Below, one piece after another: positions 3,659-3,930 of a stretch of 64,000 nt of DNA. Both the position numbers and the translations under genes were made by a program. The stretch is taken from positions 64,914,001 through 64,978,000 of the forward strand of contig OX597832.1 in NCBI GenBank assembly GCA_951406725.2. Direction: 5' to 3'. Under the pieces are notes generated by a model. The model searched no databases, had not been told where the DNA came from, and was given only the letters and a program-made list of their open reading frames with translations. Source of the stretch: Octopus vulgaris. Lineage: Eukaryota. Position 1 is the stretch's first letter. Each line of letters starts with the position of its first letter.

Positions 3659-3930
3659 GAACCACACGCGTATTTATATAAAATCTGTGTGATTGAGTGG
3701 ATTTATCCAGATAGTTTTGGCTGACGAGCTACAAGTGGATTTTTTTGTAAGTAAAATTACATTTAATTCATTAATAGCGAAACAATTGTCCCAAAATAAT
3801 CTGTATTTTTGTTATTTTTTATTTGCCCTGTCCGTGTGAGCTATCGTACTGACTTTCATCATGTATTTTGTGGTTGAAACCTTTGGATTAACTGGTGCTA
3901 GAGGAGCCATATAGTGACCACTCTCTTATA
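3659..3930 (+). mobile_element. Penelope-like element terminal-repeat fragment carrying a hammerhead ribozyme
   Basis: Unique-looking segment bounded on both sides by TA-rich microsatellite. It contains a minimal hammerhead of the type known from PLE terminal repeats. Confidence 0.6.
3708..3803 (+). ncRNA. Minimal type I hammerhead ribozyme (short, palindromic stem III), core intact
   Basis: Stem I cagatagttttgg 3708-3720 / ccaaaataatctg 3791-3803; CTGACGA 3721-3727; stem II GCTA 3728-3731 / TAGC 3775-3778; GAAA 3779-3782; stem III C-G closing AATT; GTC cleavage triplet 3788-3790. Confidence 0.85.

Follow-up and report, generated by a model that had tools for sequence, protein, structure and literature searches.

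An intact type I hammerhead motif with a palindromic stem III in an abundant dispersed repeat, probably an end piece of a Penelope-like element

A stretch of 64,000 nucleotides (64 kb, hereafter the window) carries at positions 3708-3803 of its plus strand a 96-nt type I hammerhead motif with every core base letter-perfect. Judged by its letters and its modelled fold, this is a true, intact hammerhead ribozyme for which self-cleavage is predicted. It lies in a repeat of approximately 280 nt whose family is very abundant in sequencing-run contigs. We consider it fairly probable that the motif is the ribozyme of a Penelope-like element (PLE) terminal repeat, the repeat at 3659-3935 being a solo, 5'-truncated end piece whose cleavage would depend on dimer formation.

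The motif folds into the three-way junction of a type I hammerhead, with its ends in stem I. The element, its parts and its flanks are as follows.

3545-3658: left flank, a (TCTA)n(TA)n microsatellite, from the sequence
3659-3935, plus strand: ribozyme-carrying repeat, ~280 nt, a non-repetitive island between TA-rich runs
3708-3720, plus strand: 5' strand of stem I, from the pairing model
3721-3727, plus strand: catalytic core C3-A9 (CUGACGA), from the sequence and the descriptor scan
3728-3778, plus strand: stem II, from folding
3779-3790, plus strand: G12 A13 A14, palindromic stem III and C17, from the sequence and the structure assignment
3791-3803, plus strand: 3' strand of stem I, including U1.7 at 3797
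3804-3926, plus strand: 3' tail of the element, with insertions in other copies
3927-3958: right flank, TA-rich, from the sequence

By standard numbering, the free N7 position of the core is 3725, G12-A14 fall at 3779-3781, A15.1 at 3782, and G16.2-U16.1-C17 at 3788-3790; the cut would fall at 3790/3791, after C17. The G10.1-C11.1 pair at the base of stem II is 3728/3778. Stem I has 12 pairs across 13 positions, in the order six Watson-Crick pairs, a G-U pair (3714/3797), an A-A mismatch (3713/3798), and five Watson-Crick pairs. Stem II consists of 4 bp, a 2x2 loop with A3774 at its 3' end, 8 bp (two of them G-U), a U-rich 4x3 loop, 5 bp, and a 6-nt loop. Stem III is ACAAUUGU at 3782-3789, a perfect 8-nt palindrome. 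An initial annotation of the window had reported all core bases, the G-C pair at the base of stem II, a 13-position stem I with one mismatch and one G-U pair, an extensible stem II, and a stem III reduced to a self-complementary stretch; each of these was recovered, the stem II extensions being the 8-bp and 5-bp helices. Stems I and II pair with predicted probabilities of 0.91-1.0 in 111-nt and 277-nt contexts and of only 0.2-0.4 in a 601-nt context that includes the microsatellites.

A descriptor scan of both strands returned a single perfect-core hammerhead match in the 64 kb, the motif at 3708-3803. With its observed stem lengths the motif occurred in 0 of 300 shuffled windows (block-wise, dinucleotide-preserving shuffles of the whole 64-kb window), and a loose hammerhead descriptor gave five matches over the same 300 (0.017 per window). 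The folding z-score of the motif was -4.96, with 0 of 200 shuffles as good. An Rfam scan of the whole window found no family above its gathering score, and no hammerhead model was among the 37 Rfam matches at E<=10 in 3400-4800; the long stem II together with the short stem III may be why. The hammerhead search proposed in the initial annotation was positive by descriptor and negative by Rfam model. Metagenome scans found no relative of the element: a 22-nt exact stretch had 0 matches, and two matches to the bare core pattern lacked stems I and II when read and were taken as chance. Viral contigs gave 32 matches to a 15-nt stretch, with the upstream core in none of the 32, and 0 matches to the gapped core pattern.

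The element is inserted in a TA microsatellite, where a target-site duplication is indistinguishable. It starts approximately 130 nt before the predicted cut site rather than at it. No second copy of the 3659-3935 element and no second intact motif was found within the 64 kb, where the partner search upstream of the element covered only 3.7 kb. Another dispersed repeat, present at 3377-3453 and 41805-41878 on opposite strands (79% over 78 nt), has its first copy just upstream of the element. In the predicted fold, a 6-bp complementarity joins the common 5' edge of the element (3695-3700) to its 3' end (3917-3922), and this may be due to chance.

Part of the ribozyme stretch was present in 20 of the 24 sequencing runs listed. 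Contigs of four runs, X1, X2, X15, and X16, drawn from three coded organisms (A, H, and, with two of the runs, B), were aligned to the element, and 1,332 contigs of X2, 184 of X1, five of X15, and five of X16 matched it. Among the X2 contigs, 514 were at 99% identity or more and 576 at 95-99%. Summed X2 depth, which is not a copy number, was 269-599 at 3659-3688 and 0.4-1.1 million across the ribozyme, with the step at ~3690. These data show a very abundant repeat, most copies of which seem to begin near 3690-3710, just 5' of stem I. Seven runs guessed to be RNA contain 0.40 of the words, and in X16, the one of the seven that was aligned, a contig spans the predicted cut site; contigs reveal neither strand, ends, nor level, and we make no claim of expression from it.

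Copies of the family are nearly invariant. Substitutions reached 5% at three sites, of which the only one inside the ribozyme is N7 (3725), where C is replaced by G in about a quarter of the X2 depth (225,331 of 891,496). The sole indel inside the ribozyme, among those listed, is in the U-run loop of stem II. The near-invariance bears on stem covariation, with variation located at N7 and the U-run. Contig 9 of X15 differs from the window copy by 0 other letters and 11 gap letters; the gaps are four insertions 5' of 3705, so this contig is identical to the window copy over 3705-3843. At least nine short stretches of other copies are missing from the window copy, all outside the ribozyme, and insertions in the 3' tails of other copies lie, among those listed, behind 3842, 3857-3859, 3865, 3881, and 3903. 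The segments 3659-3704 and 3842-3903 are marked by many deletions and very few substitutions (24 gap letters and four other letters in contig 14). Faulty assembly, instead of decay, may account for these flanking deletions of the window copy.

Other contigs represent sister forms, which keep the 3' half of the ribozyme region and have different 3' tails, with loose ends behind 3830-3842. One sister form, with a loose end before 3764, has a different stem II middle that still forms a hairpin (two contigs, agreement 0.83, read by eye), and this loose end hints at a re-paired middle helix. The sequence 5' of 3705 in 13 X2 contigs contains the reverse complement of the stem I 5' strand, which makes these contigs head-to-head inversions. 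The four runs, whose contigs are short, show no joint leading from the 3' end of the element to its 5' start, as a tandem or a circle would have. Contig 14 of X16 continues for 131 further letters 5' of 3659 and contig 13 of X15 for 194 further letters 3' of 3935, and in neither do these letters fit the stretch again. The lack of back-joints and the non-fitting flanks argue weakly against tandem arrays.

Two neighbouring sequences were compared with the element.

4143-4386: inverted repeat with 121-bp arms (93%), a 244-nt near-perfect palindrome, TA-flanked
4438-4521, minus strand: degenerate hammerhead-like motif with two core mismatches, the palindrome ACAGCUGU, and a 3-bp stem I

The centre of the inverted repeat resembles the loose ends of sister contigs behind 3830/3834. 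Two sister-tail motifs match 4263-4274 and 4282-4294 with one mismatch each; they were picked after the likeness was seen, and the first alone was reached by 21 of 100 shuffles. Alignments of the element's own 3' tail to 4143-4386 including its TA-rich ends were equalled by 0 and 8 of 2000 shuffles. Direct homology between the two was rejected, as 690 and 1860 of 5000 shuffles did as well once the TA ends were left out. With moderate support, the inverted repeat is probably a head-to-head pair of 3' tails from a sister subfamily, although it may instead be a miniature inverted-repeat transposable element (MITE). If transcribed, it would form long double-stranded RNA. A 64-nt palindrome at 37195-37258 (94%) lies outside the microsatellites; its likeness to the 3' tail is weak and was equalled by 50 and 265 of 2000 shuffles, so it was not accepted as a relative of the tail.

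The motif at 4438-4521 had been taken in the initial annotation for a crippled neighbouring copy, an idea that we dropped, because 98 of 1000 shuffles align equally well to the element. It has a relative of its own at 57306-57402 on the plus strand (nhmmer E 6e-05), and the two make up a second, decayed hammerhead-like family. Both have C at core position 4 and A before GAAA; their stem II of ~10 bp differs in a single pair, in which both bases have changed (C-G versus U-A, by eye), and the 57306-57402 copy carries an extra CUGAUGA directly after its GAAA segment. Paired with each other, ACAGCUGU and ACAAUUGU would mismatch at two central bases.

PLE repeats contain min-HHRs and variants with a small palindromic helix III, mostly in solo truncated copies (Cervera & de la Pena 2014, PMC4209133). 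As defined there, the strict min-HHR has an unpaired base between A9 and position 10.1, no helix III loop, and a helix I of 4-5 bp. The motif at 3708-3803 departs from this form in having no unpaired base (A3727 is directly followed by G3728), in its looped helix III, and in the greater length of helix I, so the word "minimal" in the initial annotation does not describe it and the palindromic-helix-III variant fits instead. With the PLEs that carry strict min-HHRs (PMC4209133; Poseidon PAc of Anolis, PMC11167929) it shares an expected dependence on dimers or protein, an AT-rich site, and truncated solo copies. With the palindromic-helix-III PLE hammerheads of PMC4209133 it shares the type I form, full core, G10.1-C11.1 pair, and dispersed solo copies. 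Examples among the rows of Fig. S3 there are Saccoglossus kowalevskii (2), Marsupenaeus japonicus, Aedes aegypti, and Hydra. An extra base after A9 is likewise absent from the Marsupenaeus and Saccoglossus (2) rows, and the Saccoglossus (2) row, which bears no mark of PLE association, also frames its palindrome with CA...UGU; its layout is the closest among the rows compared. Helix I is longer here than in those PLE hammerheads (6+1+5 pairs), helix II has a 51-nt extension with two internal loops, and no linked ORF is seen here. The searched supplementary file of PMC4209133 had 0 matches to "Octopus" and no cephalopod row.

Two PLE-like traits are seen in the family, from which we infer PLE parentage of the 3659-3935 element. 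One is 5' truncation with an adjacent inverted copy, present in the 13 X2 contigs and in the depth step; inverted 5'-truncated copies are described for PLEs by Craig et al. 2021 (bioRxiv 2021.04.23.441226). The other is insertion into AT-rich or microsatellite DNA. Both flanks of the element are TA repeats, a weak trait because ~8% of the window is microsatellite; the same preprint describes a microsatellite insertion bias of N-terminal-EN PLEs, and PLE cleavage of AT-rich targets has been shown (Frangieh et al. 2024, PMC11167929). The PLE link drawn in the initial annotation is borne out by these traits of the repeat and finds no counterpart in a coding remnant, since 450 of the 475 stop-free fragments of the window yielded no reverse transcriptase (RT) or GIY-YIG (endonuclease) remnant. 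Points that stand against the PLE reading include this lack of a linked RT or GIY-YIG, a geometry and a size of ~280-300 nt that look retrozyme-like, a modelled double hammerhead that with C at N7 does no better than two trapped monomers, and the failed alignment to the neighbouring inverted repeat once the TA ends are left out.

The main alternative, possible though we think it unlikely, is that the element is a dispersed non-LTR retrozyme monomer. Its source would then be a tandem repeat of approximately 300 nt elsewhere in the genome, whose transcripts, reduced to unit length by double-hammerhead cleavage, would become circles and return to the genome through a PLE reverse transcriptase. 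Both the length of the unit and its low GC agree with the retrozymes of ~300 bp and <45% GC described in PMC7229834, and the helix I and II geometry is canonical-like. As in the non-LTR retrozymes of coral, Mytilus, and axolotl with canonical type I hammerheads (PMC7229834; bioRxiv 10.64898/2026.07.22.740005), helix I has 6 bp, the helix II base has 4 bp, and a short palindromic helix III goes with a ~300-nt non-coding unit in high copy. The 6-bp helix I with U1.7, the 4-bp helix II, and the absence of a base after A9 look nearer to canonical tandem-retrozyme hammerheads than to min-HHRs. In contrast to those elements, an internal loop and a long arm stand in place of loop 2, the family shows head-to-head inversions, and the short contigs of the four runs show no tandem array or circular junction. 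The last two points count weakly against a retrozyme, as do the X16 and X15 contig flanks that do not refit the stretch and the start of the window copy ~130 nt ahead of the cut site. The preprint describes retrozyme families as derived from pLTRs and often including many solo monomers, so this alternative overlaps the PLE reading.

Dependence on a partner, which is part of the PLE reading, was explored by folding models, which ignore tertiary energy, so that the energies indicate direction only. The best monomer fold (-28.3 kcal/mol) pairs core bases G5-A9 with 3786-3790, with pair probabilities of 0.94-1.0. The active monomer with a 2-bp stem III is modelled at -22.7 kcal/mol and a probability of 1e-4 at 37 C, so the trap costs about 5.6 kcal/mol; part of it (the pairing of GAC with GUC) would arise in every C7/GUC hammerhead. 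With a helix III of 1-2 bp, the palindromic loop is able to pair two copies. The intermolecular palindrome duplex is modelled at -6.4 kcal/mol at 37 C and the double hammerhead at -56.6 kcal/mol, as against 2 x -22.7 for two active monomers, a gain of ~11 kcal/mol. Together with the palindrome pairing, this modelled gain agrees with the dimer-dependent kind of short-stem-III hammerhead named in the initial annotation. With C at N7, the double hammerhead is level with two trapped monomers (-56.6), and an inactive dimer is more stable than either (-60.4). With G at N7, it equals the best dimer fold, and the active fraction of the monomer is 7e-3 instead of the 1e-4 modelled for C.

We think it improbable that the ribozyme works as a monomer whose active fold is stabilised by a tertiary contact between U1.7 (3797) and A3774. 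A Hoogsteen contact between a U1.7-type base and an A of loop 2 is described in PMC11875169, and from their positions U1.7 and A3774 are a candidate pair, correctly placed for it, which leaves room for monomer activity. A cleavage rate of ~0.8 per min is given for coral retrozyme monomers whose helix III is short (PMC7229834), and nearest-neighbour models leave out tertiary energy of this kind. The modelled trap of about 5.6 kcal/mol would have to be paid, however, U1.7 is held in a G-U pair, and loop 2 is closed as a 2x2 internal loop. Selection for dimers is suggested by the palindrome, perfect over 8 nt, to which the second family has a different but equally perfect counterpart.

With the end piece of a PLE as the preferred reading, the following course can be proposed. 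The end piece would have been reverse-transcribed into the TA microsatellite. Plus-strand RNA of a parent array or of a long transcript would fold stems I and II; the 2-bp stem III would fail to hold the junction open, and the monomer would stay off, with G5-A9 paired to 3786-3790. Two copies could then join through ACAAUUGU, whose pairing forms an 8-bp helix III common to both, and the resulting double hammerhead, as modelled, would cut after C17. In published work, related motifs have been shown to cleave in vitro as double hammerheads, and the PLE hammerheads reported in PMC4209133 had no monomer activity and low dimer activity. An element protein may act as a chaperone too, as a protein-assisted hammerhead has been shown for the Anolis PAc element (PMC11167929). 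Cutting would trim the element RNA out of its precursor. Hammerhead cleavage was dispensable for PLE insertion in vitro (PMC11167929).

For the window copy itself, its match to other copies means that it has not been crippled by decay, and its intact ribozyme is explained by this likeness to the family, with no part played by upkeep on the side of the host. The statement in the initial annotation that this copy could still cleave holds as far as the intact ribozyme goes; cleavage would take a partner, of which the 64 kb show none, and in the model the monomer sits in a trapped fold. For want of such a partner, the most likely state of the copy is idleness or, failing that, weak cutting in trans.

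The DNA of the window is that of an animal and rich in microsatellites (about 8% masked), and its ORF translations show many copies of one dispersed repeat. No Pfam match above the curated cut-offs was obtained among 450 of the 475 stop-free fragments of at least 42 aa, and six weak matches were all under those cut-offs; the 25 fragments left out are of 42-43 aa, and short exons would escape such a scan. This fragment scan found no host gene in the window and does not bear out the candidate minus-strand host gene to which the motif had been called antisense. Co-option of the window copy by the host as a cis-acting transcript cutter at this locus would fit a ribozyme that is intact while both flanking parts have lost short stretches. 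We nevertheless regard it as very improbable: the sequence equals that of the family, hence intactness calls for no locus-specific selection; no gene was found in the window and no partner in cis; and the flanking losses, many deletions beside few substitutions, could also stem from faulty assembly. Least credible of all is a chance arrangement in AT-rich DNA without ribozyme ancestry, with which the lack of an Rfam hammerhead match would agree but which 0 of 300 shuffled windows, family variation at neutral positions, and two metagenome core-pattern matches without stems, unlike this motif, contradict.

Hammerheads of this kind are already described in many animals, and the motif at 3708-3803 is a clean further example. 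A report on Octopus vulgaris describes 31 recently active Penelope-like families, with ribozymes unmentioned in the part of that source available (PMC13282606), and no report of a cephalopod ribozyme, hammerhead, or retrozyme was among the matches listed by a literature search that had most subscription papers and Repbase outside its scope. The finding extends PLE or retrozyme hammerheads to an octopus-like genome type, which is of modest importance. As an intact ribozyme with a long stem II arm and a candidate U1.7-A contact, it is a tidy test object, and the natural N7 variant of the family is predicted to shift the balance between monomer and dimer. There is a slender chance that the family is a young, near-invariant repeat common to several related species, and so abundant that transcripts of separate solo loci pair through the palindrome and cut each other in trans. 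If so, the core trap, tuned by the N7 C/G variant, would be a concentration switch, the "dead" copies, scattered in their thousands, would together make a network that cuts RNA across the genome, and no ribozyme family would have been described before this one from a genome of cephalopod-like type.
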